Below, in pieces: positions 13,886 through 61,560 of a DNA stretch of 61,698 nucleotides (positions within the stretch are counted from its first letter, which is position 1; the number at the start of each line of letters is the position of its first letter). The translations under genes were made by a program, and so were the position numbers. Origin of the DNA: a bacterium (GTDB lineage: Bacteria > Patescibacteriota > Doudnabacteria > UBA920 > 2-01-FULL-46-14); contig JAUYKH010000040.1 in assembly GCA_030700065.1 (NCBI GenBank), positions 1 to 61,698 of the forward strand, read 5' to 3'. The notes beneath the pieces are model-generated. The model ran no database searches. It saw only the letters and a program-made list of their open reading frames with translations, and was not told where the DNA came from.

Positions 13886-15365
13886 TAATACCACTTTTGC
13901 AAAAGCCTTAATTGTCATGGCGCTCTTGGAAGGGATTTCTTTGCTGTCGTTCGTTTACCCGGCAATTTCCCTGCCACTGCTCTTGGTAGCCGCGGTTGCG
14001 ACCTTTTTCATGTCGTTACGAAAGTTGGAATGGGGAATTTATATTTTGTTTGGGGAATTATTTTTGGGTAGCAGGGGACATCTGCTGGAGCACGGATTTT
14101 TGTCTCTAAGGTTGGTCGTTTTTTTGGCAGTATTTGTAGCGTGGATTGTGAGCAGAATCAAGAATCAAGAATCAAGAATCAAGGAACTCCAAACCGTAAT
14201 TCATAATTCTAAATTCATAATTCTATATGCGCTGTTGTTGTTGGTAATCGGTCTTGGGGTGGTTAATGGTTATTTTCGTGGGAGCGGCTTAGCAAATATC
14301 TTCAACGATGCAAACGGGTATCTGTATTTGGCCATTCTTCCGGCGGTTCTGGCGGGAATTCGGACCCAGGAGGCTGTAGCAAAGTTATTCAAAATTTTGG
14401 GCGCCGCGGTTGTTATCATCGCGGTCAAAACGCTAATTTTATTTGTGTGGTTTACTTACGGCCTAGGAGGGGTTGCCACGCTATATCATTGGGTATTAGA
14501 TCAGGACATTGGCGAGATTACCGGTGTTGTGGGCAGCGCGTCGAGGATTTTCATGCAGAGCCAATTTTACGCGCTGGTGGGCCTGTTTGTTTTCGGTCTT
14601 CTTACCCTCCCCTTGCCCCTCCCATCAGGGGGGGGGGATGAGGAAGAAGATTCCTCCCCCCTTGTGGGGGAGGTTGGGTGGGGGGGGAAGTGGTTGGTTG
14701 TCGCCGCGGCAATATTTTCCGTCATCATGAGCTTATCGCGCAGTTTTTGGCTTGGCGGCATTGTGGGAGCTGTATTTGCGGCGGCAATGCTGCTCTTTTA
14801 TTTCCGCGTGAGTTGGAAAAGATTTGCTAAATTTGCCGCAGTTTTGATTTTAATTGCCGGGGCAGAGGTTAGCATATTTGTTGCAGTCTCGAAGACTGCA
14901 GGACAGAGCGAGACAGTCGGGAGCCGCCTTGAAAATCCAGTTTCAGAAGCCGCGGGCGGGGCGCGGCTGCTGCTTCTGCCAGAATTGCTTGAGCAAATAA
15001 AACAAAGCCCAATTGTTGGAAAAGGTTTTGGCCGAGAAGTGACTTATTCCAGTTACCTGCCGGATCGGGTGACGGCCGATAATCCAGAAGGAAAAATTAC
15101 CAGCTTTGCCTTTGAATGGGGCTACCTTGACACGATATTAAAAATTGGACTCGCTGGGACATTGGTTTATCTATTATTCATTGCAAAAGTATTTGGGGAC
15201 GGCTGGTCAAAGTTTCAAGTTCCAGGTTTCAAGTTTCAAATACTGGGATTGCTATCCGGTTTAGTCGCGCTAGTTATTTTAAACATCACCACTCCCTATC
15301 TTAATCATCCGCTGGGAATCGGATATTTGATGCTAAGTCTTGTTGCTTTTAAGAACTATGAATAA
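13878..15365 (+). CDS. O-antigen ligase/polymerase-family (Wzy_C-like) membrane protein carrying several simple-repeat insertions
   Basis: Polytopic membrane protein with an SLSRSFWLGG motif. It lies within the glycan cluster. Confidence 0.6.
   Translation: MPSNTTFAKALIVMALLEGISLLSFVYPAISLPLLLVAAVATFFMSLRKLEWGIYILFGELFLGSRGHLLEHGFLSLRLVVFLAVFVAWIVSRIKNQESRIKELQTVIHNSKFIILYALLLLVIGLGVVNGYFRGSGLANIFNDANGYLYLAILPAVLAGIRTQEAVAKLFKILGAAVVIIAVKTLILFVWFTYGLGGVATLYHWVLDQDIGEITGVVGSASRIFMQSQFYALVGLFVFGLLTLPLPLPSGGGDEEEDSSPLVGEVGWGGKWLVVAAAIFSVIMSLSRSFWLGGIVGAVFAAAMLLFYFRVSWKRFAKFAAVLILIAGAEVSIFVAVSKTAGQSETVGSRLENPVSEAAGGARLLLLPELLEQIKQSPIVGKGFGREVTYSSYLPDRVTADNPEGKITSFAFEWGYLDTILKIGLAGTLVYLLFIAKVFGDGWSKFQVPGFKFQILGLLSGLVALVILNITTPYLNHPLGIGYLMLSLVAFKNYE
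14154..14181 (+). repeat. Perfect heptanucleotide tandem repeat (AGAATCA x4) inside a CDS
   Basis: Read directly from the sequence. It encodes RIKNQESRIK. Confidence 0.95.
14198..14224 (+). repeat. 13-mer AATTCATAATTCT repeated twice with a 14-nt period, inside a CDS
   Basis: Copies at 14198-14210 and 14212-14224 are identical. Confidence 0.9.
14600..14690 (+). repeat. G-run/C-run hairpin element inserted in frame (G10, G8, C6 tracts)
   Basis: CCTCCCCC-CTTGT-GGGGGAGG perfect 8-bp hairpin at 14653-14673. G10 at 14628-14637 and G8 at 14680-14687. Encodes LPLPLPSGGGDEEEDSSPLVGEVGWGGK between transmembrane segments. Confidence 0.85.
15211..15238 (+). repeat. Imperfect heptamer array AGTTTCA/AGTTCCA/GGTTTCA/AGTTTCA inside a CDS
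   Basis: It uses the same unit as 9629-9656 and encodes KFQVPGFKFQ. Confidence 0.85.
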
Positions 15366-32684: not shown

Positions 32685-32754
32685 ACCCCGCACCACTTTT
32701 ATTGCAATCTAAAGTTTTTTTCGTTGGACTTATTGTTCAAAAGTGGTGCGGGGT
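32685..32754. repeat. 16-bp perfect inverted repeat with a 38-nt spacer, in the divergent trxA/dac intergenic region
   Basis: ACCCCGCACCACTTTT (32685-32700) pairs with AAAAGTGGTGCGGGGT (32739-32754). Confidence 0.9.
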
Positions 32755-32779
32755 AAAATAAACCTTAACGCACCCTCGG

Positions 32780-44500: not shown

Positions 44501-44571
44501 GCGGGATTAGTACAGTGGTAGTACGCTTGCTTCCCAAGCAAGAGATGCGAGTTCGATTCTCGTATCCCGCT
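44501..44571 (+). tRNA. tRNA-Gly (anticodon CCC)
   Basis: Hand-folded cloverleaf. Acceptor GCGGGAT/ATCCCGC, D stem GTAC/GTAC, anticodon arm CTTGC-TTCCCAA-GCAAG, T arm GCGAG-TTCGATT-CTCGT, discriminator T. No CCA is encoded. Confidence 0.9.
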
Positions 44572-44615
44572 CCGAAATTGTTAGGGTTCGACCTGCCCGG
44601 TAGTTAAACAGCAGT

Positions 44616-44852
44616 TTATACTATCTGGGTTCCCGTTACCCGCTCCAAGATTAGAGATTCCGATTTTTGACCAGCCATTTCGTGGGCGGCGCACAGCGCC
44701 GCCCATTGATTTCGGGGGTTTCCGCGCGCCTCGCGGTTGGTCAAGACGAGGTTCGAGCCGAACACTTGTTCGGCAGCAACCTTTTTATTGAAAAGGTTGC
44801 TATCCCTTGCGGTTTTATCAAGAAAAGAAGCGACTTTTATCCATTCTGCCAT
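44616..44852 (-). pseudogene. Orphan 78-aa ORF; possibly the C-terminal remnant of a serine-recombinase-type integrase
   Basis: FGSNLVLTNREA...NQWAAL resembles, from memory, the C-terminal GSNL.L..K...PW..L region of large serine recombinases. It abuts tRNA-Gly and no catalytic domain is present. Confidence 0.3.
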
Positions 44853-44862
44853 CGGTTTGGCA

Positions 44863-44894
44863 TTGCAAAATTATCGGGGGGGGGGGGGTAAAAT
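44863..44894 (+). promoter_or_regulatory. Putative promoter TTGCAA-20 nt-TAAAAT whose spacer contains a G13 tract
   Basis: The -35 box is at 44863-44868, G13 at 44876-44888, and the -10 box at 44889-44894. It lies 45 nt upstream of ATG 44940. Confidence 0.4.
44876..44888. repeat. Homopolymeric G13 tract (intergenic)
   Basis: Counted directly from the sequence: five G at 44876-44880 plus eight G at 44881-44888. Confidence 0.95.
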
Positions 44895-44939
44895 ATAGTA
44901 AAGGTCTTAAAAACAATTATTAACTAACTAAAAGAATCT

Positions 44940-47342
44940 ATGAAAAAATTTAACAAGATTTCAACAGTTATATTAAGTCTTGCGCTTATACTTGGTATAA
45001 CTGGACCGACTACTACATTTGCGGCAACAGACCCGGGTCTGGATGCGGCACGTAGCTTTGCGGTTCTGGCCGGGTCGGGCATTGTCAGCACTAATCCCCC
45101 GCAAGTTATTGTCGGGGATGCCGGTTCAAGTCCAACCGTATCAAACGGTTTAACGAATGTTGAAGTAACCGGAACGAATTACCAAGCGAATGAACAAGCT
45201 GTAATTGATGCCAAAACCGATCTGGCTATTGCCTATGCCGATGCTTCTACTCAACCCCAGTCAGGTGCTGATATACCCTCAGATCTCGCTTCACAAACTC
45301 TGGTACCGGGAGTATATCATTCCGCTTCCGGGGTATTTGCGATATCGGGAGCGGGAGTTTTGACGCTTGATGGCGGCGGAGACCCGAATGCGGTTTTTAT
45401 TATCAAAGCAGATTCGACTCTTACTACAGCAGTCGGCAGTTCGGTTGTTCTTACGAATGGCACTCGTGCCAGCAATGTCTTTTGGACTGTCGGTTCTTCA
45501 GCGACTCTTGAAGGCACTACCTTTGTGGGAACTGTTATGGCTGTGGCTTCAATCACGGATAGTGGAGGTTCAATTGTTTCAGGAAGATTTTTGGCTGACG
45601 CCGATAATGATGGTACTGGCGCAGTTACATTAAACAATACAGAAATTACCGTCCCAACCAACCTTACGCTTAATAAAATCGTAGTTAATAATGATGGCGG
45701 CACAGATGTTGAAGCTGATTGGACTTTGACAGCTACCGGACCAACCACGATTTCCGGTCCCGGTGCTGCGGGCTCTACCGATGTAGTCAGCGGCGGTGAT
45801 TTTCTTTCCGGAGCATATACACTGTCTGAATCAGCCGGACCTGCCGGGTACACTGCTTCATCTTGGAGCTGTGTAAAAAATGGGGGCGCGCCGGTTACCG
45901 GTTCTTCAATTACACTTGCGACGGGTGATACCGCAACCTGTACTATCACCAATAACGATATCGCGCTCACAACCGCAACACTTAATGTCGTCAAAACAGT
46001 AATTAACAACAACGGTGGCACGGCAGTTGCTTCTGACTTTACTCTTAATGTTACTGGTACCAATGTTTCAAATCCTTCTTTTGCTGGTTCTGCATCGGGC
46101 GTAGATATTACGCTTGACGCTGGTTCTTACGCAGTAACAGAGCCAGTCGTCCCCACTGGCTATTTACAAACAGGTTCTGGTGATTGTTCGGGAACAATTT
46201 CGGCAGGTCAAACCAAAACTTGCACCATTACCAACGATGATATTGCGCCTCAACTTATCGTGAACAAAATCGTCATCAATGACAACGGCAGGACTAAGGT
46301 GATTGCCGACTTTCCGCTCTTTATTGACGGCGGTAGCGTAACATCGGGAGTTGCGAGCACAACCACCATAGGATTACACACGGTTTCTGAGACTTCTGAT
46401 TCCGTCTATACATCTGTTATCGGCGGCAATTGCGCCGCGGACGGTACGATTACTCTTGCGCTGGGCGATGTGAAAACCTGTACTATCACCAATGACGATA
46501 TAGTGCCCGTAGTTCCGCCCTCATCGGGTGGCGGCGGAGGTAGCGGTTCATACTATCCACCTGTCCCACCCCTCATTGACGTGGTGAAAGTACCAAGTTC
46601 TCTGGCACTGCCGAACGGTCCCGGCCCGGTAATGTATACCTACACGCTTCGCAATATCGGAACGGTTCCAGTAACTAATATAACAATGGTCGGTGATACT
46701 TGCAGTCCCATTGTACGCATTTCTGGCGACACGAATAGTGACAACAAACTTGATGTGACTGAAACATGGGTTTACACTTGCTCAACGACGCTATCTAAAA
46801 CTCACATGAACATCGTCACTACGATTGGATGGGCTAATGGCATAAGCGCAACTGATATTGCAAACGCTACGGTCATCGTCGGTATTCCAGTGGTGCCACC
46901 TTTGATTCACGTAACAAAAGTTCCAAGTCCGCTGACTTTACTAGCCGGAGGAGGAATGGTTACATACACAAATAAAGTCACCAACCCGGGGACGGTGCCA
47001 TTAAGCAATGTTCAACTCACTGATGATAAATGTGGTCCCGTAAAATATATTTCCGGCGACACAAATGGCAATGCAAAACTTGATATCACGGAAACATGGA
47101 CATACACCTGTCGGACGAAGCTCACTAAAACCACGGTAAATACCGTCACAGCGAGCGGCGAAGCTAATGGTCTGACGGCAAGAGATTTTGCGATTGCTAC
47201 TGTCGTTGTAGCCGCCCCAAAATTACCAAATACAGGGATTAGTCCTGACGAAAAAAGTATGCCTTGGAATATCGTCATACCGGCTGGCATCTTTGCGATT
47301 TCGATTTTCTTCTATCTTGCTCGAAGAAAACAAACAGTTTAG
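44940..47342 (+). CDS. LPXTG-anchored surface protein: ice-binding-like (DUF3494) N-domain, four Cys-bracketed beta-domain repeats and two further repeats
   Basis: Signal peptide. The segment AARSFAVLAGSGI...VFIIKADSTLT...SNVFWTVGSSATL is DUF3494-like. Repeats match L.VVK.V.NNNGGT....DF.L...G. The C-terminus is LPNTG, then a transmembrane helix, then RRK. Confidence 0.8.
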   Translation: MKKFNKISTVILSLALILGITGPTTTFAATDPGLDAARSFAVLAGSGIVSTNPPQVIVGDAGSSPTVSNGLTNVEVTGTNYQANEQAVIDAKTDLAIAYADASTQPQSGADIPSDLASQTLVPGVYHSASGVFAISGAGVLTLDGGGDPNAVFIIKADSTLTTAVGSSVVLTNGTRASNVFWTVGSSATLEGTTFVGTVMAVASITDSGGSIVSGRFLADADNDGTGAVTLNNTEITVPTNLTLNKIVVNNDGGTDVEADWTLTATGPTTISGPGAAGSTDVVSGGDFLSGAYTLSESAGPAGYTASSWSCVKNGGAPVTGSSITLATGDTATCTITNNDIALTTATLNVVKTVINNNGGTAVASDFTLNVTGTNVSNPSFAGSASGVDITLDAGSYAVTEPVVPTGYLQTGSGDCSGTISAGQTKTCTITNDDIAPQLIVNKIVINDNGRTKVIADFPLFIDGGSVTSGVASTTTIGLHTVSETSDSVYTSVIGGNCAADGTITLALGDVKTCTITNDDIVPVVPPSSGGGGGSGSYYPPVPPLIDVVKVPSSLALPNGPGPVMYTYTLRNIGTVPVTNITMVGDTCSPIVRISGDTNSDNKLDVTETWVYTCSTTLSKTHMNIVTTIGWANGISATDIANATVIVGIPVVPPLIHVTKVPSPLTLLAGGGMVTYTNKVTNPGTVPLSNVQLTDDKCGPVKYISGDTNGNAKLDITETWTYTCRTKLTKTTVNTVTASGEANGLTARDFAIATVVVAAPKLPNTGISPDEKSMPWNIVIPAGIFAISIFFYLARRKQTV

Positions 47343-47368
47343 TCTAAGCATTGAGAAGAATTAGTGAG

Positions 47369-47400
47369 CAAATGCCAAACAAGAGTTTGTCTGGCATTTG
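47369..47400 (+). terminator. Hairpin terminator after the LPXTG gene
   Basis: CAAATGCCAAACAA-GAG-TTTGTCTGGCATTTG, with 13 of 14 bp paired. The U-tail is weak. Confidence 0.5.
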
Positions 47401-47445
47401 TGGTTATAAATCCAATAGAGACCTTGCTCGCACTACAACAAAATT

Positions 47446-47691
47446 ATGACCAGTATAATGCAATCACAAATTTTCTTCTTTATTTCTTCAATAGGATTTG
47501 TCATTCTTGGAATTTTAGCCGCAATAATATTGATCTATATTCTATGGATACTCAATCTATTTACAAAGATTTTAAGAAGAATGGAAAAGGAGATTGATTC
47601 TGTCGGTGATGCGACCAAAGAAACAATTGAGGCGATACGAGAAAGCAATGTGTTTAGATTTCTGTTCAAAGGAAAAAGAAAGCACAAATAA
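47446..47691 (+). CDS. Small membrane protein (DUF948-like)
   Basis: N-terminal transmembrane helix followed by a charged coiled segment. The family call is tentative. Confidence 0.45.
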   Translation: MTSIMQSQIFFFISSIGFVILGILAAIILIYILWILNLFTKILRRMEKEIDSVGDATKETIEAIRESNVFRFLFKGKRKHK

Positions 47692-47752
47692 TTGTAAGGT
47701 GTATACTTAATGAACATGAGCGTGAAATTATCAATTTTAATTAAAAAACTAT

Positions 47753-48097
47753 ATGACAAAAAAGAAAATTGGAATGTCCGTCGGTAAGATTGCAGGAATA
47801 GGTGCTGGAGTGGCGGCTGTCGGCGCAGGGGCGTATTACCTTTTTGGGCCAAAAGGAAAAAAGCATCAGAAAAAAGCGAGCGCTTGGGCGGCAGAGATGA
47901 AAAGAGAAGTTGAGAAGGAGTTAAAAAAGATGAAAGGCGTTACGAAACCTCTTTATCAGGATGTGGTTGATGCCATTGCCAAAACCTACAGCAAAAAATA
48001 CAAGAATTATTCAGGCGAAATCAATGCTTTTGCCAAGAAGCTCAAAACTCGCCCTACTCTGAAAAAAGTAAAAAGTACCATCAAGAAAATTACTTGA
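47753..48097 (+). CDS. YtxH-like protein
   Basis: Gly-rich helix followed by LFGPKGKKHQKK, resembling the YtxH LFAPKSGKETR motif. Confidence 0.45.
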   Translation: MTKKKIGMSVGKIAGIGAGVAAVGAGAYYLFGPKGKKHQKKASAWAAEMKREVEKELKKMKGVTKPLYQDVVDAIAKTYSKKYKNYSGEINAFAKKLKTRPTLKKVKSTIKKIT

Positions 48098-48107
48098 TGC
48101 AAAGTTC

Positions 48108-48722
48108 ATGCAATCAAAAACCTTATCAAAACAAACACTATTATTAGTAGTTGTCCTTTCAGGATTAACTCTCTTTATCGCACTTCTTTTGTATTTTATT
48201 CCAAAAAATTCAGTTCAAAGTAGCTCGGCAATGCTTTTTGAAAATGTTGTCGCTCTTCCAAAACAAGAACAAGCAAGTGTTAAATTGCCGGTGCGTCTTA
48301 AAATTCCAAGTATAAATGTTGACGCTCCCGTTGAGTATGTAGGTCTTACATCCGACGGAGCAATGGATGTGCCAAAAGGCCCTGTTAATGTAGCGTGGTT
48401 TAACCTCGGACCACGTCCCGGGGAAACAGGCAGTTCTGTTATTGCCGGACACTATGGCTGGAAAAATAATATACCGGCAGTATTTGATAATTTACATAAA
48501 ATACGCAAAGGTGATAAAATCTATATTGAAAATGGAAAAGGAGCGATTATTACTTTTGTTGTGCGTGAAATTCGAACATACAGCAAAGATGAGGCCGCGC
48601 CAGATGTATTTGGATCAAGCGATGGTAAAGCGCACCTTAATCTCATCACTTGCACGGGAGTTTGGAATAAGGCGGAAAAAACTCGATCCGAGCGACTTAT
48701 AGTATTTACTGATAAAGAATAA
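48108..48722 (+). CDS. Sortase (class E/F-like transpeptidase)
   Basis: N-terminal transmembrane helix, VIAGH, LITCTG (TLxTC-type Cys) and the conserved Arg in ERLIVF. Confidence 0.8.
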   Translation: MQSKTLSKQTLLLVVVLSGLTLFIALLLYFIPKNSVQSSSAMLFENVVALPKQEQASVKLPVRLKIPSINVDAPVEYVGLTSDGAMDVPKGPVNVAWFNLGPRPGETGSSVIAGHYGWKNNIPAVFDNLHKIRKGDKIYIENGKGAIITFVVREIRTYSKDEAAPDVFGSSDGKAHLNLITCTGVWNKAEKTRSERLIVFTDKE

Positions 48723-49089
48723 TAAGAATATTTTCATTTGCAAAATCCCGTCGTTGAAAGCGAGGACGGCGCGGGATTCCTTCCCCCAACCCCCTTCCTC
48801 CCGCGCCGTCCGAGCGAAAAAAGAGGCCGCTCCCGCCGTCCTGCTCGTTTAGAGCAGAGCCAAGCAAATCACTCTTTTCCTTTTAGAAGAATTTTTTGGT
48901 GGCGCGCGCAAATCAGAAATCGTAAAGAGTATTTTGCTTGGCGGCGAGCGTTAGCGAGCGGCGGCGGGGCGGCTTCCATTGGTTAGGAATTTTTGATAAA
49001 GTGAGTTCGAGCGCAGTCGTAAATATACTCCAGAATCAAACAGACATTAGTTTTAGAATTTTTTTGATGGGCTTCCATTGTCGGAAAAC

Positions 49090-49119
49090 AAAAAGAGCGG
49101 TTTGTGCCGCTCTTTTTTT
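49090..49119. terminator. Bidirectional hairpin terminator
   Basis: AAAAAGAGCGG-TTTGTG-CCGCTCTTTTT. It is flanked by A/T runs on both strands and lies 10 nt from the stop of the minus-strand S8 gene. Confidence 0.7.
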
Positions 49120-49128
49120 CTTTCTTCC

Positions 49129-50946
49129 TTACTTATCGTATCCGTTGGGTGGTGTTGCGTCGTCCCAAATTAAACCGACCGCCGTTACCCCAGTTATCAC
49201 GGTTTCGTAGTGTCCGGATGGGGCATTTTTGTAACTGAATGTTACCACTCCGTTACTTCCGGTCGTGCCCGTGCCGCTTCCTACAACATTGCCGTTAAGT
49301 GTAAGGTTGATGGAAACCGAAGCATTGGCAACAGGATTTCCAAAGTCGTCAATCACCGCTATATGGATATTCAAGTGTTTGTCGCTATTTTTACCGCCTT
49401 CGGTTGTATAGGTGATTGAATTTACTATTGCGGTAGTGGGTTCGGACGGGGCAGGGCCGATTGACAAATTCGCCGTGCCGCTGCCGGAAACGCTTCTTGT
49501 ATCCGTGGCCGTTACCCCAACTGTATAATTGCCATCTGCCAAGCTGGAAATATCAAGATTGCCGGTATAAGTTCCCGGAGTGGCTGTTTCAGCAAAGCTG
49601 ACAGCTGTGGTAGTGACATTTACCGTTATAGTGAAGTCAGATGGACTCAAGCCGCTTATCGCATTGCCGTTTTCGTCTGCTATCGCCGCCGTTAATATAG
49701 CCGTGGTATCAATTCCACTTTCGTAGTTGGTCTTGTCCGTACTCAAATCAACATTTACTGCCGGGTCGGGCGGCTGTGGCGGTACAAGAGAAGCAATTGC
49801 GGCTGCGACATTAACCAATCCATAGCCGTAATGCGTGTCCTTTCCAGTCGCTCCAATATCATCAGCCGTAGAGTTGAGTATCGCTCTTACTTCGTCATTA
49901 TTGGTAACTCCGGCCGCAATCACAAGCGCGGCGGCACCGGCGACATGCGGAGAGGCCATTGAAGTACCGGTGAATTTAACATAACCGCCGCCAAGCTGGG
50001 TGGAGTTGATAGAAACGCCGGGCGCCGAAAGCTCTACCGCGACACCGGTGCTTGAAAAACACGGCCGTGAATCGCTTTTGTTCGTTGCGGCAACCGCCAT
50101 AACCGAATCATACCTCGCGGGGTATCCGACATTATTACCCTTGCCGGCGCAATTTCCGGAATTGCCGGCAGCTGCCGCGTGAAAAATCCCCGCGGCCGCC
50201 GAATTATCAAAAGCCGCTTTAACCGTAGCACCGGGATCTGATCCCGCCCCGTAACTATTATTTGTTACTTGCATCCCGTTATCTACCGCCCATTGAAGCG
50301 CGGCGATAATATTACTCCAATAACCCGATCCGCTTGAGTTGAGAACCTTAAGCGCATAGAGGCTTGCTAACGGAGCAACACCAACAACTCCAGTATCATT
50401 ATCTTCAGCCGCCACGGTCCCCGCGACATGCGTGCCGTGGCCATTGTCGTCCATAGGGTTGGCGTCGTTATTCACAAAGTCGTAGCCGCCCGTAAAATTC
50501 GCGTCCAAGTCAGGATGCGTGTAATCAATACCCGAATCAATAATGGCAACTTTCACGCCAACACCTTTGTTGTCGTCGTCGTGAACCGTCCCGGAGCCGA
50601 TCCTCTCAACGCCCCACGTATTATCCAATTCCACGTCAATGGCGTAAACGACTCCGTCGGGCTCAATGCTTGTGATATTGGGATTCCGCGAAAGTCCCGC
50701 AATCGCCGATTCGGGGATGCTTGCGGCAATTGCCGGCACAAGATGATAGCTGTGTTTAATAACACCGCCGTGGCTCTCTACCAACGCTTGCTCGCGCGAA
50801 CCCGGCGTTTGGTTAAAGATAATAAAAACATCAACTTTATTGTTCCCGGCGGCCTGAACTTGGGAGTTTGTCGATCCCACTACTCCGACAGCCGTTATAC
50901 CGAATACAACTCCTAAAATAAGCGAATACGATAGAATTTTTTTCAT
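49129..50946 (-). CDS. Secreted S8 (subtilisin-family) serine peptidase with C-terminal Ig-like domains
   Basis: Signal peptide. Catalytic triad motifs VAIIDSGID, HGTHVAGTVAA and GTSMASPHVAG. Confidence 0.85.
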   Translation of the reverse strand: MKKILSYSLILGVVFGITAVGVVGSTNSQVQAAGNNKVDVFIIFNQTPGSREQALVESHGGVIKHSYHLVPAIAASIPESAIAGLSRNPNITSIEPDGVVYAIDVELDNTWGVERIGSGTVHDDDNKGVGVKVAIIDSGIDYTHPDLDANFTGGYDFVNNDANPMDDNGHGTHVAGTVAAEDNDTGVVGVAPLASLYALKVLNSSGSGYWSNIIAALQWAVDNGMQVTNNSYGAGSDPGATVKAAFDNSAAAGIFHAAAAGNSGNCAGKGNNVGYPARYDSVMAVAATNKSDSRPCFSSTGVAVELSAPGVSINSTQLGGGYVKFTGTSMASPHVAGAAALVIAAGVTNNDEVRAILNSTADDIGATGKDTHYGYGLVNVAAAIASLVPPQPPDPAVNVDLSTDKTNYESGIDTTAILTAAIADENGNAISGLSPSDFTITVNVTTTAVSFAETATPGTYTGNLDISSLADGNYTVGVTATDTRSVSGSGTANLSIGPAPSEPTTAIVNSITYTTEGGKNSDKHLNIHIAVIDDFGNPVANASVSINLTLNGNVVGSGTGTTGSNGVVTFSYKNAPSGHYETVITGVTAVGLIWDDATPPNGYDK

Positions 50947-51069
50947 ATTGTTTGTTGTTATGTTTTTATAGTAGCAAGGGTATATAAAAAGTCAAACCCT
51001 CGGCTTTTTGAGTGTTTCCTGCAGGTGCAGAGCCAAGATTTGCGCGGTGTTTTTTATGAGCAGTCTGGT

Positions 51070-51828
51070 TTATTTCAACTCAAACGTTATCGATACGTTG
51101 ACTGTCACGTCCTGGGAACCCGGCTGGACAGGGGAGGTCCCGCCACCGGCGCCTCTGCCATAGACATCGGGCGCGCTAAGCTCATAAGGCATAGGGAGGT
51201 AAACATTGCCTTCATTGAAATTGATAACCTTGCCAAGTTTGACGCCGAGATTTGAGGCGAGGTCCTGCGCTTTTTGTTTGGCTTTATTTATCGCCTGTTC
51301 GCGCGCCTGCGCCTTGAGAGCGTCCGGATCGTCGATATAATATGAAACATTGTCGATTTGATTGATGCCTTTGCTGGTCAGGCCGCCGACCATGGAAGAA
51401 ACATCCTCAAGTTTTGAAACTTTTACACTCACGGTTTGGGTAAGATTATAACCAGAGATTGTTGGCGGTCTTGTTTCTCCGCTGACCGGATAGCCATAGT
51501 CATACTGGGGATAGAGGTTATAGCCGCTGGTTTTTATGTCCTCGTCCGCTATTCCTTTGGATTTCAAAAAATCAATGACAATTTTCATTTTGCTGTCGTT
51601 GTCTTCTTGAACTTTGCCGGCATCCTTGCCCTGCGTAACAACCGAGAATGACAACGACGCCCGGTCGGTCTTGGCCGTGACCTTTCCCTCGGCGGACATA
51701 GTGATGCTCCTTGTTTTGCTTATGTCAACAGAGGAACGCTTTTTTATCTCAAACCCCGCCAGAATTAATGCGGCCAGGATAAGTATGGCCGATAAGACGC
51801 CCAACAAATCCTTTATTCTCGGATTCAT
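51070..51828 (-). CDS. SIMPL-domain (DUF541) protein
   Basis: N-terminal transmembrane helix. SIMPL-like pattern (...A.LSFSV...G.DA..VQ..N...M..V...L...GI...DI.T..Y.L.P.Y). Confidence 0.65.
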   Translation of the reverse strand: MNPRIKDLLGVLSAILILAALILAGFEIKKRSSVDISKTRSITMSAEGKVTAKTDRASLSFSVVTQGKDAGKVQEDNDSKMKIVIDFLKSKGIADEDIKTSGYNLYPQYDYGYPVSGETRPPTISGYNLTQTVSVKVSKLEDVSSMVGGLTSKGINQIDNVSYYIDDPDALKAQAREQAINKAKQKAQDLASNLGVKLGKVINFNEGNVYLPMPYELSAPDVYGRGAGGGTSPVQPGSQDVTVNVSITFELK

Positions 51829-51852
51829 GCTTGTTTCCTTCCAATTTAATTT

Positions 51853-52275
51853 TTAACCTAATTCCTCGAAACGAATATCGTTTTCGTGGGTGAGAATAGC
51901 CAAAACTTTTTTGACCTCCAGCTCTGGAAATTTTTCTAGTATTCTCGTTTCCGCGTCTTTGAGGTCCGAGAAGTGTTTTTCCCGCTCTTCCCCATTGGAA
52001 TTAAAGGCCTTTCTGCCTCCGTACGCGCCGCAGTCCGTGTGATTCATCAGGATAACTTGTTTGATATCGTGGAGTGTTTTGCTTGTCTCAATTTGCTTCA
52101 TCAAAAACTCAGCGTCGCTAGGCTCGTTTGGCCCAACAATATTTTTTACCCCCCCTGCCACTGAAATAATATCAATGTCTCCGAGGAGCCCCTGATCCTC
52201 CAGGTATTTTTTTATCGCTTTGCCGAAACGGAAATCAATGCAGTGAATAATGAGCGCCTGGCAGGTATGTTGCAT
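51853..52275 (-). CDS. Small beta-carbonic-anhydrase-like protein (CxDxR / HxxC motifs)
   Basis: HCIDFR and NHTDCGAY parallel the beta-CA zinc ligand motifs (CxDxR, HxxC). It is 140 aa with a leaderless-type promoter. Confidence 0.4.
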   Translation of the reverse strand: MQHTCQALIIHCIDFRFGKAIKKYLEDQGLLGDIDIISVAGGVKNIVGPNEPSDAEFLMKQIETSKTLHDIKQVILMNHTDCGAYGGRKAFNSNGEEREKHFSDLKDAETRILEKFPELEVKKVLAILTHENDIRFEELG

Positions 52276-52292
52276 GCTTAAATATTAGCAAA

Positions 52293-52337
52293 AATGAAAA
52301 CGCCGCGCAATCTCCCCCCGTGGGAAATTGCGCGGCG
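52293..52337 (-). terminator. Rho-independent terminator (minus strand) between the two paralogues
   Basis: CGCCGCGCAAT/ATTGCGCGGCG perfect 11-bp stem. On the minus strand it is followed by TTTTCATTTTT. Confidence 0.7.
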
Positions 52338-52348
52338 CAGGACGAATC

Positions 52349-52822
52349 TCAAACGGCTACTGGCACCATTTCGTTTTGCGGCCGCGGCTTCACGGTGACA
52401 AACTCGACGCTCGTCGGGCGTTCCGCGGAGGCCCGCTCAAGCCTAGCCAGGCGGTGTTCGAAGGTAAGTCGCGGGTAAACCGCCCTGATGATTGCTTCAG
52501 ATTTCTCCATGTGTTTTTTATGGAGGGCTTCCTCCTTTTCCTTGGAAGGAAATTGACCAAAGGCTTTCTGATAGGCCCGGCAGTCAGTATGATTGAGGAC
52601 TATCACGTGTGTGGCACCGAGCTCCACCGCGAGATGAACTTGCCTCATAATGTAGCCGGTGTCAGAGTCGAGAGTCGGCGCGGCCAGGTCCTTGCACCCG
52701 CCGGCGGGATTGAAGCAAATTGCGGTTTTCTCTATCCCGAGTTCGGCGAGCAGTCCCATTACTATCGGTCGCAGATCGGGGTCGAAACAGTGCAGCACAA
52801 AGACTCGTTCTGTCGCTTCCAT
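52349..52822 (-). CDS. Divergent paralogue of the beta-CA-like protein
   Basis: It has HCFDPDLR, AGGCKD and NHTDCRAY. AAGGAGG lies 5 nt upstream of the ATG at 52822. Confidence 0.4.
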   Translation of the reverse strand: MEATERVFVLHCFDPDLRPIVMGLLAELGIEKTAICFNPAGGCKDLAAPTLDSDTGYIMRQVHLAVELGATHVIVLNHTDCRAYQKAFGQFPSKEKEEALHKKHMEKSEAIIRAVYPRLTFEHRLARLERASAERPTSVEFVTVKPRPQNEMVPVAV

Positions 52823-52877
52823 TAGCACCTCCTTGGAGTTGAATTCGATTACTGATTACTGGTGATAGTAGCAGTTA

Positions 52878-52906
52878 TTGCTTATTTTTGCAAGAGATTT
52901 TATGAT
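52878..52906 (+). promoter_or_regulatory. Sigma70-type promoter TTGCTT-17 nt-TATGAT for the tRNA unit
   Basis: The -35 box is at 52878-52883 and the -10 box at 52901-52906. It lies about 25 nt upstream of the tRNA-like 5' half. Confidence 0.5.
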
Positions 52907-52931
52907 ACTAATGAGGCCCGCCAATACCAGA

Positions 52932-52956
52932 GCCACCTTAGCTCAGCCGGTAGACC
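52932..52956 (+). other. tRNA-like 5' half (acceptor 5' strand plus D arm) of an interrupted outer tRNA
   Basis: GCCACCT-TA-GCTC-AGCCGGTA-GACC. A14, G18G19 and A21 are canonical. There is one C-C mismatch in the D stem. No anticodon arm follows. Confidence 0.6.
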
Positions 52957-52973
52957 TGCCCGCCCTTGCCTAA

Positions 52974-53047
52974 GCCGACGTAGCTCAATTTGGTAGAGCA
53001 ATCGCTTCGTAAGCGATAGGTTATCGGTTCAATTCCGATCGTCGGCT
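52974..53047 (+). tRNA. tRNA-Thr (anticodon CGU)
   Basis: Perfect hand-folded cloverleaf. Acceptor GCCGACG/CGTCGGC, D arm GCTC-AATTTGGTA-GAGC, anticodon arm ATCGC-TTCGTAA-GCGAT, variable AGGTT, T arm ATCGG-TTCAATT-CCGAT. Confidence 0.92.
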
Positions 53048-53080
53048 CGGGCGATGGCAGGCGGGGCAGCCCCATAGTGA

Positions 53081-53110
53081 AGGTCCCCGGTTCGATTCCG
53101 GGAGGTGGCT
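53081..53110 (+). other. tRNA-like 3' half (variable loop, T arm, acceptor 3' strand) of the outer tRNA
   Basis: AGGTC-CCCGG-TTCGATT-CCGGG-AGGTGGC-T. AGGTGGC is a perfect 7-of-7 complement of GCCACCT at 52932-52938. Confidence 0.6.
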
Positions 53111-53130
53111 GTGGCAATGGCAGGCGGAGC

Positions 53131-53162
53131 AACGGCTCAAGCGGTTGAGCCGTTGAAATTTT
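53131..53162 (+). terminator. Rho-independent terminator of the tRNA unit
   Basis: AACGGCTCAA-GCGG-TTGAGCCGTT followed by GAAATTTT. Confidence 0.65.
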
Positions 53163-53283
53163 GGCCAATTTGTCAAGGCCCTGGTGGATTGACAGAAGCG
53201 CGCAATTTAGAGGAAAATTAGGGGGGTATGCTTTTGAAAGACCTTTCCAAATAAGGCTTTTTTTGTTATTATGAATTCTGCCT

Positions 53284-61416: not shown

Positions 61417-61560
61417 TGTAGTTCTTGTATTATGTCGGGAAACAAAAATTTGTTTCCTCATATAAACCCCGTTAGAACTCGCATTTCTAAATGGGGTAAA
61501 AACAAAAATCATTAAGTACTATTGCAGAAAGCCAAATGCGATAGTTCAGGGAGAGATACG

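Follow-up and report, generated by a model that had tools for sequence, protein, structure and literature searches.

A complete tRNA-Thr gene inside the D stem of another: a probable tRNA-carrying cassette in Candidatus Doudnabacteria and related contigs of the candidate phyla radiation

Genes for tRNAs are classic integration sites, and sublocations in the anticodon loop and in the T loop are known. The integrative elements that target them (phages, integrative and conjugative elements, archaeal elements of the pNOB8 and SSV type) carry tRNA sequence that keeps the host supplied, the displaced tRNA fragments stay in place, and repeated events accumulate at one locus. The closest described case that we found is the tRNA-Thr(GGU) locus of the archaeon Caldiarchaeum, in which a 5' fragment, a recombinase-bearing element of 1.8 kb and the gain of an intron at position 24/25 were attributed to a mobile element that had become integrated (PMC3293823). 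Within the searchable literature, no description of nested tRNA genes or of a tRNA cassette was found for bacteria. The present analysis concerns a stretch of 61,698 nucleotides (GenBank assembly GCA_030700065.1, contig JAUYKH010000040.1, positions 1 to 61,698; called the window below, at its whole length), which the homologues of its AtpB place in Candidatus Doudnabacteria, a member of the candidate phyla radiation (CPR, or Patescibacteria). Between a divergent pair of carbonic-anhydrase-like genes and the atpI-atpB-atpE-atpF-atpH-atpA operon, a complete tRNA-Thr(CGU) gene was observed between the two halves of another tRNA gene. We consider it likely that a resident tRNA-Thr(CGU) gene was split here between positions 23 and 24 by a 111-nt non-autonomous DNA cassette which carries a whole replacement tRNA-Thr(CGU) of a different allele.

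Such a cassette would resemble several known systems at once, with the logic of tRNA-targeting integrative elements and of homing introns and the form of short palindromic repeats. The traits of the integrative elements listed above recur in it. It differs from them in its size (about 110 nt), in having no integrase, in carrying a complete tRNA instead of a 3' or 5' segment, in its D-stem site at 23/24, in arms that are complementary to each other and are not direct att repeats, and in leaving matched 5' and 3' halves. Homing introns, such as the bacterial group I introns of tRNA anticodon loops and the intron and homing-endonuclease insertions of CPR rRNA genes, share with the cassette a fixed conserved site in an essential RNA gene, occupied and empty alleles among relatives, and transcription from the promoter of the host gene. 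In contrast, the cassette has no ribozyme core and no endonuclease open reading frame (ORF), and its host gene is not restored by splicing; rescue would come from a spare copy inside the insert, and since this spare recreates the target, nesting can recur. Repetitive extragenic palindromes (REP/REPIN) and miniature inverted-repeat transposable elements (MITE) are likewise short and non-coding, with inverted arms forming a long hairpin and with many copies including "empty" versions. The likeness extends to a related 20-nt palindrome, CCTGCCTGCCGGCAGGCAGG, scattered in CPR contigs, and to a 37-nt hairpin which is polymorphic between the near-identical strains L007 and L008-L010 (L-numbers are the labels of the relatives' loci and metagenome contigs compared with the window). 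Unlike these repeats, the cassette shows no target-site duplication, has a functional tRNA as cargo, is not linked to a REP-associated tyrosine transposase (RAYT) or other transposase, and was recovered at one defined tRNA position, by a pattern that required the D-arm junction. The disrupted tRNA genes of archaea (non-canonical bulge-helix-bulge introns, split and permuted genes) also include interruptions outside the anticodon, some in the D arm, and hairpin-like inserts that apparently move between tRNA genes; the cassette differs by its bacterial host, by the lack of bulge-helix-bulge geometry, by outer copies that decay unspliced and by the whole tRNA in the insert. Finally, in nested transposons and twintrons, as here, an element contains its own target, and the Russian-doll nesting records the order of events, but the nested unit of the cassette is a tRNA gene with arms of 17-19 nt.

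The tRNA-Thr loci of relatives were retrieved via their AtpB proteins. The closest relative (L091/L092, AtpB 90% identical) possesses at the same position an uninterrupted tRNA-Thr(CGU), GCCACCTTAGCTCAGCCGGTAGAGCAGCACTTTCGTAAAGTGAAGGTCCCCGGTTCGATTCCGGGAGGTGGCT, which scored 64.5 bits against the Rfam model RF00005. The flanks of this gene match those of the outer halves in the window over 15 nt upstream (cccgccaataccaga) and about 60 nt downstream (GTGGCAATGGCAGGCGGA.CAACGGCTCAA..GGTTGAGCCGTTGAAATTTTGGCCAATT, then the atp promoter palindrome). Positions 1-28 and 39-73 of the outer gene are identical to the intact gene, and two changes only distinguish the window from it: the 111-nt insertion between A23 and G24 in the D stem, and the replacement of ACTTTCGTAA, which comprises the remaining 5' strand of the anticodon stem and the entire anticodon loop, by CCCAT. 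The empty site reads GGTAGA/GCAGC and the filled site GGTAGA-insert-GCAGC, with no base duplicated or lost. Judging from these alignments, the outer unit would be a recently disrupted resident tRNA-Thr(CGU) gene. An earlier note on this DNA had offered disruption by insertion as one of three readings and had proposed that the locus be compared in related genomes; the uninterrupted gene between the same flanks in L091/L092 bears out that reading. The note had also judged that the halves are tRNA-derived and not an old pseudogene, which agrees with their identity to a gene functional elsewhere and with matches too good to be due to chance (Table 1). Of the two genes, ARAGORN and Rfam called the inner one and not the outer halves. 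When the insert was deleted in silico, the outer gene of the window still gave no tRNA call, ACTTTCGTAA being replaced by CCCAT. Since this scar removed the outer anticodon loop, the inner tRNA alone can decode.

Starting at the first and last inserted base, the two arms of the insert (L and R in Table 1) form a helix in register over 16-17 positions, in which position 3 is a U.G wobble and position 7 a C.A mismatch. This helix ends 2-3 nt short of the inner acceptor stem. The 111-nt insert, also recovered as the inverted repeat I1, folds into an L/R stem capped by the cloverleaf, with -57.5 kcal/mol and z = -6.4 compared to shuffled sequences. It has no coding capacity, and no ORF lies in the cassette. 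Over 18 aligned arm pairs of related inserts, 82% of the cells were paired, versus 29-48% with the partner slid. The U.G wobble and the C.A mismatch were invariant in all 18 pairs and positions 11-17 covaried, which is the covariation of the connecting helix that the note had suggested looking for among relatives. Small corrections apart, the features which the note had listed for the unit were all found. The 3-nt bulge that it placed in the connecting helix disappears with pairing in register from the junction, and its coordinates for GGCAG were off by one base. The D stem "GACC" with one mismatch was misread: the cut lies behind G22 A23, and the insert opens with "CC". The note saw no anticodon arm between the halves; the loop is indeed gone, but remnants of the stem persist on either side of CCCAT. 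The proposed Gly(GCC)-type anticodon arm was dropped on finding the intact homologue in L091/L092: the outer gene is a tRNA-Thr(CGU), and TTGCCTAA is the end of the left arm of the insert. The inner gene differs at only a few bases from the plain gene of L003 and from the inner gene of L020. It does not encode CCA, a single C following the discriminator.

Table 1. Parts of the tRNA-Thr unit in the window, with the comparisons on which each assignment is based.
Feature	Position	Strand	Comparison
Promoter-like stretch TTGCTT-17-TATGAT	52878..52906	+	Near base-for-base in L003, there 6 nt upstream of a plain tRNA-Thr
Putative older cassette, truncated left arm CCCGCCAATACCAGA, flanking the resident (level 2) gene	52917..52931	+	Identical upstream of the intact gene in L091/L092; homologous to the inner left arm (repeat D2)
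Outer tRNA-Thr(CGU), positions 1-23 (acceptor 5' strand, U8 A9, D stem 5' strand, D loop, G22 A23)	52932..52954	+	23/23 identical to the L091/L092 gene; 96% to the inner gene of L007
Left arm L of the inserted cassette, CCTGCCCGCCCTTGCCTAA (19 nt)	52955..52973	+	Missing from the empty allele L091; first 10 nt near-invariant in 18 aligned related inserts; pairs with R
Inner intact tRNA-Thr(CGU), 75 nt, allele GCCGACG...	52974..53048	+	ARAGORN; Rfam RF00005, 72.4 bits, full model
Right arm R of the inserted cassette, GGGCGATGGCAGGCGGG (17 nt)	53049..53065	+	Missing from L091; last 10 nt GGCAGGCGGG near-invariant in related inserts
Outer positions 24-28, GCAGC (53066-53070), then 5-nt scar CCCAT replacing ACTTTCGTAA	53066..53075	+	Direct comparison with L091/L092
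Outer positions 39-73 (anticodon stem 3' strand AGTGA at 53076-53080, variable loop AGGTC, T arm, acceptor 3' strand, discriminator)	53076..53110	+	100% match with the inner gene of L007 and with the gene of L091
Putative older cassette, right arm GTGGCAATGGCAGGCGG, then start of the level 3 tRNA remnant (AGC)	53111..53130	+	Downstream of the intact gene in L091; second copy of repeat D1; arm of I2
Terminator-like hairpin AACGGCTCAA-GCGG-TTGAGCCGTT	53131..53154	+	Perfect 11-nt inverted repeat I4; conserved in L091

The whole unit can be read as a nest of three layers, made of the inner cassette, the resident gene, and an older arm pair with older tRNA remnants. The older left arm is complementary to the older right one (inverted repeat I2, 52916-52938 versus 53103-53125, 83%), and a repeat finder matched 52916-52945 at 73% to the inner left arm and tRNA start (direct repeat D2). 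The acceptor 3' strand of the outer gene is perfectly complementary to its 5' strand. Beyond the older right arm, GAGCAACGG matches positions 22-30 of other tRNA-Thr alleles and is followed by a palindrome and CCGTT; the terminator-like hairpin is apparently built on the anticodon stem (AACGG/CCGTT) of this level 3 remnant. The direct repeat D1 (53018-53068 versus 53081-53131, 51 nt, 75% identity) contains an 18-nt repeat in which the earlier note had seen support for insertion or recombination. The repeat is real; it corresponds to the right arm of the insert and the right arm of the older cassette, and not to an att duplication by an integrase. The window locus contains a single functional tRNA-Thr(CGU), accompanied by what is left of its two disrupted predecessors.

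The promoter and the terminator of the note were each sustained in part. The promoter hexamers failed a generic sigma-70 scan, and the conservation of the stretch directly upstream of the tRNA of L003 stands; it would drive the whole unit. The hairpin is a conserved structure which would act as a terminator, but it was not called by the terminator scan on account of its short T run. Compared with L003 and L091 over 52828-52931, the locus is a mosaic: the promoter region matches L003, and the last 15 nt ahead of the outer gene, with all that follows, match L091, whose promoter differs.

Occupied and empty alleles coexist among the Doudnabacteria, the site being occupied in the window and L002 and empty in L091 and L092. 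For the GCCGGCT allele, L149 is occupied and L017 and L023 are empty. Plain tRNA-Thr genes were seen at the locus in L003, L013, L016, L017 and L023, and in L004 a full gene is followed by a right arm and an outer 3' part. In L007-L010 the roles are swapped, with the GCCACCT allele intact inside and the halves of a GCCGATG allele outside. Nests of at least two levels were found in L012, L020 and L025, which showed a second type of junction in the anticodon loop (arms CCCC...GGGG, then TAAA) and serial extra 3' fragments. The functional allele of one genome may be the outer fossil of another: GCCGGCT, intact in L017 and L023, is the outer copy in L020, L025 and L149. The 37-nt hairpin, CCCCAGTAGCAGAACCTCCGGTTCGCTACGGGGTAAA, is located in the D arm of an outer tRNA-Thr 5' half (about 1960-2020 of the locus) and is present in L008-L010 and not in L007. 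AtpB is identical in all four, so that small hairpin elements have been mobile recently, or still are, in these populations. Hairpins like the second type split the D arm, the anticodon loop or the T loop of outer copies in L007, L008-L010, L020 and L025. Two hairpins of the second type, with TAAA also at the left, lie outside any tRNA in the window (32686-32757 and 61467-61500). A scan of a genome collection by AtpB synteny returned, among the matches listed, mostly distant Patescibacteria without the tRNA.

The wider family was searched for in metagenome contigs of the Joint Genome Institute (JGI) with the pattern TAGCTCANNNGGTAGANNNNCCCGCC, which gave at least 120 stretches. As the pattern demanded the D-arm junction, the recovered sites are biased to that position of the tRNA. 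Parsing of the matches yielded at least 62 junctions with the architecture of the window, in at least about 45 distinct contigs; the counts of isotypes and of outer genes given below apply to the matches listed. The layout is constant: a tRNA 5' part up to GGTAGA, then CCTGCCCGCC, a few variable bases and in most cases GCCTAA, a complete tRNA, (A/G)GGCG..GGCAGGCGGG, and the outer gene again from position 24, its first bases being GC. The arms CCTGCCCGCC ... GGCAGGCGGG are near-invariant over the 18 aligned copies, as conserved terminal inverted arms. The family involves mostly Thr(CGU), and also Thr(GGU), Thr(UGU), Val(UAC), Ala(CGC and GGC) and Lys(CUU). Its EF-G assigns the contig with the Lys case (L115) to Candidatus Liptonbacteria; with the Doudnabacteria, this places the family in at least two CPR lineages.

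The outer gene was rebuilt in silico, by deletion of the insert followed by tRNA detection, for 32 distinct simple cases. An intact outer tRNA was recovered in 13, and in each of these 13 the inner anticodon was the same as the outer one. The other 19 could not be rebuilt owing to further hairpin inserts, lost 3' parts or point decay. The anticodon arm of about 10 outers contained an extra small hairpin (TCCGCC-NNNG-GGCGGA plus TAAAC), 4 outers had lost the right arm and the 3' part, and the rest were point-decayed. As a rule, outer and inner genes represent different alleles with 49-73 of about 75 positions in common, and cassettes 91-94% identical to each other were found inside quite different outer alleles. 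Double nests occur in L207 and L123. Empty arm pairs stand at the same D-stem site in L124, L126 and L196, and L147 is an empty element beside a loaded one.

The 20-nt palindrome CCTGCCTGCCGGCAGGCAGG is perfect and equals the cassette arms joined without cargo. It recurs in unrelated CPR contigs (L025 3038-3057, L040 1360-1379, L066 4707-4726, L125 1278-1297, L180 1470-1489 and, on the minus strand, L207 4165-4184, where it reads CTTG...CAAG), sometimes in the T loops of tRNA fossils and elsewhere in intergenic DNA unrelated to tRNA. It may be a CPR-wide repeat; a role as uptake signal, recombination site or terminator is speculation. The same search pattern caught a separate phenomenon, namely tandem arrays with a period of 67-69 nt upstream of tRNA-Lys(UUU), whose units are truncated tRNA-Lys-like GATTTAGTAGCTCAGTTGGTAGAGCATCCCGCCTTGCGGGAGGGTCCTGGGTTCTTT (L104, L117, L137, L177, L186, L204). 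Similar arrays of tRNA-Gly/Asn-like units were seen in L096, L169 and L174.

A tRNA-Gly(CCC) gene at 44501-44573 of the window is followed by the 3' fragment of a different tRNA-Gly allele (...TTACCCGCTCCA), and the T loop of this fragment is split by a palindromic insert (44584-44647) which starts with the CCTGCCCG motif, as in the tRNA-Thr cassette. In L007, a Gly 5' half lies about 66 nt upstream of the tRNA-Gly(CCC) and an R-like arm downstream. The tRNA-Gly fragments of these two loci indicate that nesting also affects tRNA-Gly. The 10-mer near tRNA-Gly, which the note had connected with the other end of an accessory block, is no island boundary; it is a member of the same palindromic repeat family. 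In the window, tRNA-Gly(CCC) and tRNA-Thr(CGU) are separated by 8.4 kb, compared with 410 nt in L007 and 1-1.8 kb in L012, L013, L015 and L016. This variable interval (44574-52877 of the window) encodes a surface protein with Ice-binding and SpaA domains, a sortase, an S8 protease, a SIMPL protein and the two carbonic-anhydrase-like genes. No recombinase was found in this 8-kb block, in which six genes had Pfam matches (surface and enzyme families) and one small ORF had none. An exact-protein look-up of the 159-aa ORF upstream returned no record. Homopolymer runs of at least 10 G are present at 14628-14637 and 44876-44885.

Several other explanations were weighed against insertion of a cassette. 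The spread of already nested alleles by homologous recombination through conserved flanks, the nests themselves being rare ancient accidents propagated by recombination or gene conversion, is the strongest of them and still appears improbable to us. The mosaic described above, with a promoter like that of L003 and gene and flanks like those of L091, the shuffling of alleles and arm sets across loci, and a gene-conversion-like identity of inner and outer copies in L144 and L120 are all in its favour, and recombination and gene conversion clearly shuffle these loci after insertion. However, the outer halves, including the rare D loop CAGCCGG, are identical to L091 up to the junction, which leaves at most the 6 nt GGTAGA for a left crossover if the outer gene of the donor differed. 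That one and the same junction recurs across four or more isotypes and in numerous unrelated outer alleles also implies repeated independent insertions at one position. We regard as very unlikely that the locus is the scar of a phage, plasmid or island integrated into tRNA-Thr by an integrase, the tRNA pieces being att duplications left after deletion of the element. Serial 3' fragments downstream of a full gene in L025 and L020, the 3' fragment after tRNA-Gly in the window and the archaeal tRNA-Thr locus with its 5' fragment and recombinase element (PMC3293823) would fit such a history. Against it, the insert of 111 nt encodes nothing, no recombinase was seen among the six genes with Pfam matches in the block between the two tRNA genes, and kilobase-sized cargo was seen in none of roughly 50 junctions. 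Integration duplicates one part of the tRNA, and matched 5' and 3' halves around a complete gene are not expected from it. The ends of the insert are inverted (I1) and not direct, and the direct repeat of 18/51 nt is made of the right arms of two cassettes and of tRNA 3' parts. In viral contigs the left-junction pattern had no match, and the 18 matches of the right-arm pattern were all due to chance in GC-rich coding DNA, with no tRNA nearby. A phage or plasmid origin was rejected on this lack of genuine viral matches.

The two other readings of the earlier note, an intron-like nested tRNA and a split tRNA whose halves are released by RNase P and RNase Z, both imply that the outer gene is still used at the RNA level, as spliced intron host, split tRNA or tRNA-like RNA after excision of the inner tRNA. 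We give this possibility hardly any credence, even though 13 of the 32 outers would be complete without the insert and have the inner anticodon, and even though the conserved arm helix could hold the halves together. In the window the outer copy has no anticodon loop, about 10 related outers have additional hairpins in the anticodon arm, others show truncation or mutation, and the 19 that were not rebuilt are difficult to reconcile with a functional split tRNA. The insert divides the D stem itself, the helix starts flush at the junction without a bulge-helix-bulge motif, and no match to a group I intron or other ribozyme was obtained in Rfam. An Rfam E-value search of 52850-53250 and of the spacers of relatives found nothing beyond tRNAs. 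Among the specific candidates, a group I intron was rejected on the D-stem site 23/24, the length of 111 nt (75 of which are the tRNA) and the lack of an Rfam intron or ribozyme match. A bulge-helix-bulge intron was rejected because the arms pair from the first and last inserted base without junction bulges, and a circularly permuted tRNA because the parts are in normal order (5' part, insert, 3' part). When every plausible interval was removed in silico and the product submitted to ARAGORN, many mutually inconsistent isotypes were obtained. A mis-join of the assembly is unlikely, and a chimera fusing two strain variants of tRNA-Thr can be considered practically negligible. A contig of the Logan collection (reads SRR13727534) begins within the inner tRNA, at 52995, a kind of break typical of sequence common to several strains. 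This same contig continues across the right arm and the 3' half of the outer gene, reaching the atp operon with 100% identity, and confirms that path. A 5-kb stretch with the unit is also present in assembly GCA_034374505.1, with 4 mismatches in 4999 bases and none inside the unit; both this assembly and the Logan reads possibly derive from the same sample as the window. In addition, the same architecture with conserved arms that are not tRNA occurs in at least about 45 independent assemblies.

We propose the following course of events for the insertion of a tRNA-carrying cassette. The insertion would kill the host gene and yet supply a replacement with the same anticodon. CPR genomes generally have minimal, single-copy tRNA sets. 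The insert would be tolerated because it brings a replacement for the gene that it destroys, in a genome which probably has one copy per tRNA. Having no promoter of its own, the cassette would depend on the resident one for transcription. The arm helix may present the inner pre-tRNA to RNase P and to the 3' processing enzymes, which would release it, and CCA must be added after transcription, because the inner gene encodes only one C past the discriminator. The outer halves would be by-products, and the outer copy would then decay, as suggested by the loss of its anticodon loop. As the cargo recreates the target GGTAGA/GC, renewed insertion would be possible and would lead to Russian-doll nests. 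Our preferred account of the movement is a DNA mechanism that works in trans with specificity for a site or a structure, which might be a hairpin-recognising single-stranded DNA transposase of the IS200/RAYT kind, or endonuclease-triggered copying from an occupied allele, i.e., homing. An IS200-like Y1 transposase (PF01797, E = 1e-28) was found within about 2.5 kb of a nested tRNA-Thr in one contig pair (L101 450-746, L146 1323-1619). No other transposase-like gene was seen close to a nest, and tblastn with this TnpA detected no further copies in the other 1.39 Mb of collected contigs.

Several observations weigh against the insertion of such a cassette, or against parts of this scheme. No enzyme is linked to the cassettes: clustering of the ORFs of 53 nest loci showed housekeeping neighbours only (FtsE/FtsX-like, RF2, EF-G) and no enriched recombinase family. 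The arms are unlike those of a classic DDE-type MITE, there being no target-site duplication, and also unlike the ends of IS200/IS605 elements, which have separate left and right hairpins. Inner and outer bodies are identical or near-identical in L173, L144 and L120, and the scheme does not account for the way in which cassettes get a cargo of the right isotype. This identity could result from gene conversion after insertion or from duplication of the target. Target duplication as a general rule of insertion was rejected, most inner and outer genes being different alleles. What is said here on expression, on processing and on the outcome for the outer halves is deduced from the DNA. A preference for tRNA targets is not readable from the sample, and the 20-nt palindrome also occurs outside tRNAs. 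Possibly the arms belong to a palindromic repeat common across the CPR (CCTGCCYGCC/GGCRGGCAGG), which would have some additional role, such as in DNA uptake or recombination. Our opinion is evenly balanced on the broader proposal of an undescribed class of selfish CPR mini-elements of about 110 nt, with palindromic arms, which would home to the D-stem site 23/24, would not be spliced, would survive by carrying a tRNA with the same anticodon, and would repeatedly overwrite the single-copy tRNA genes of the host, with Russian-doll fossils left behind.

If the insertion of tRNA-carrying cassettes is the true explanation, the tRNA halves and "pseudo-tRNAs" of CPR genome bins may represent its fossils and not split genes. 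The imperfect hairpin of 16-17 bp, with its invariant U.G and C.A pairs, would provide a handle for finding the enzyme that moves it. Two ways are known by which a selfish insert persists in an essential RNA gene, splicing itself out as introns do, or rebuilding the gene from a carried fragment as integrative elements do; carrying a whole spare would be a third. It would explain the turnover of tRNA-Thr alleles and the swapping of their roles between closely related CPR genomes, and would leave at one locus a layered record of successive replacements.

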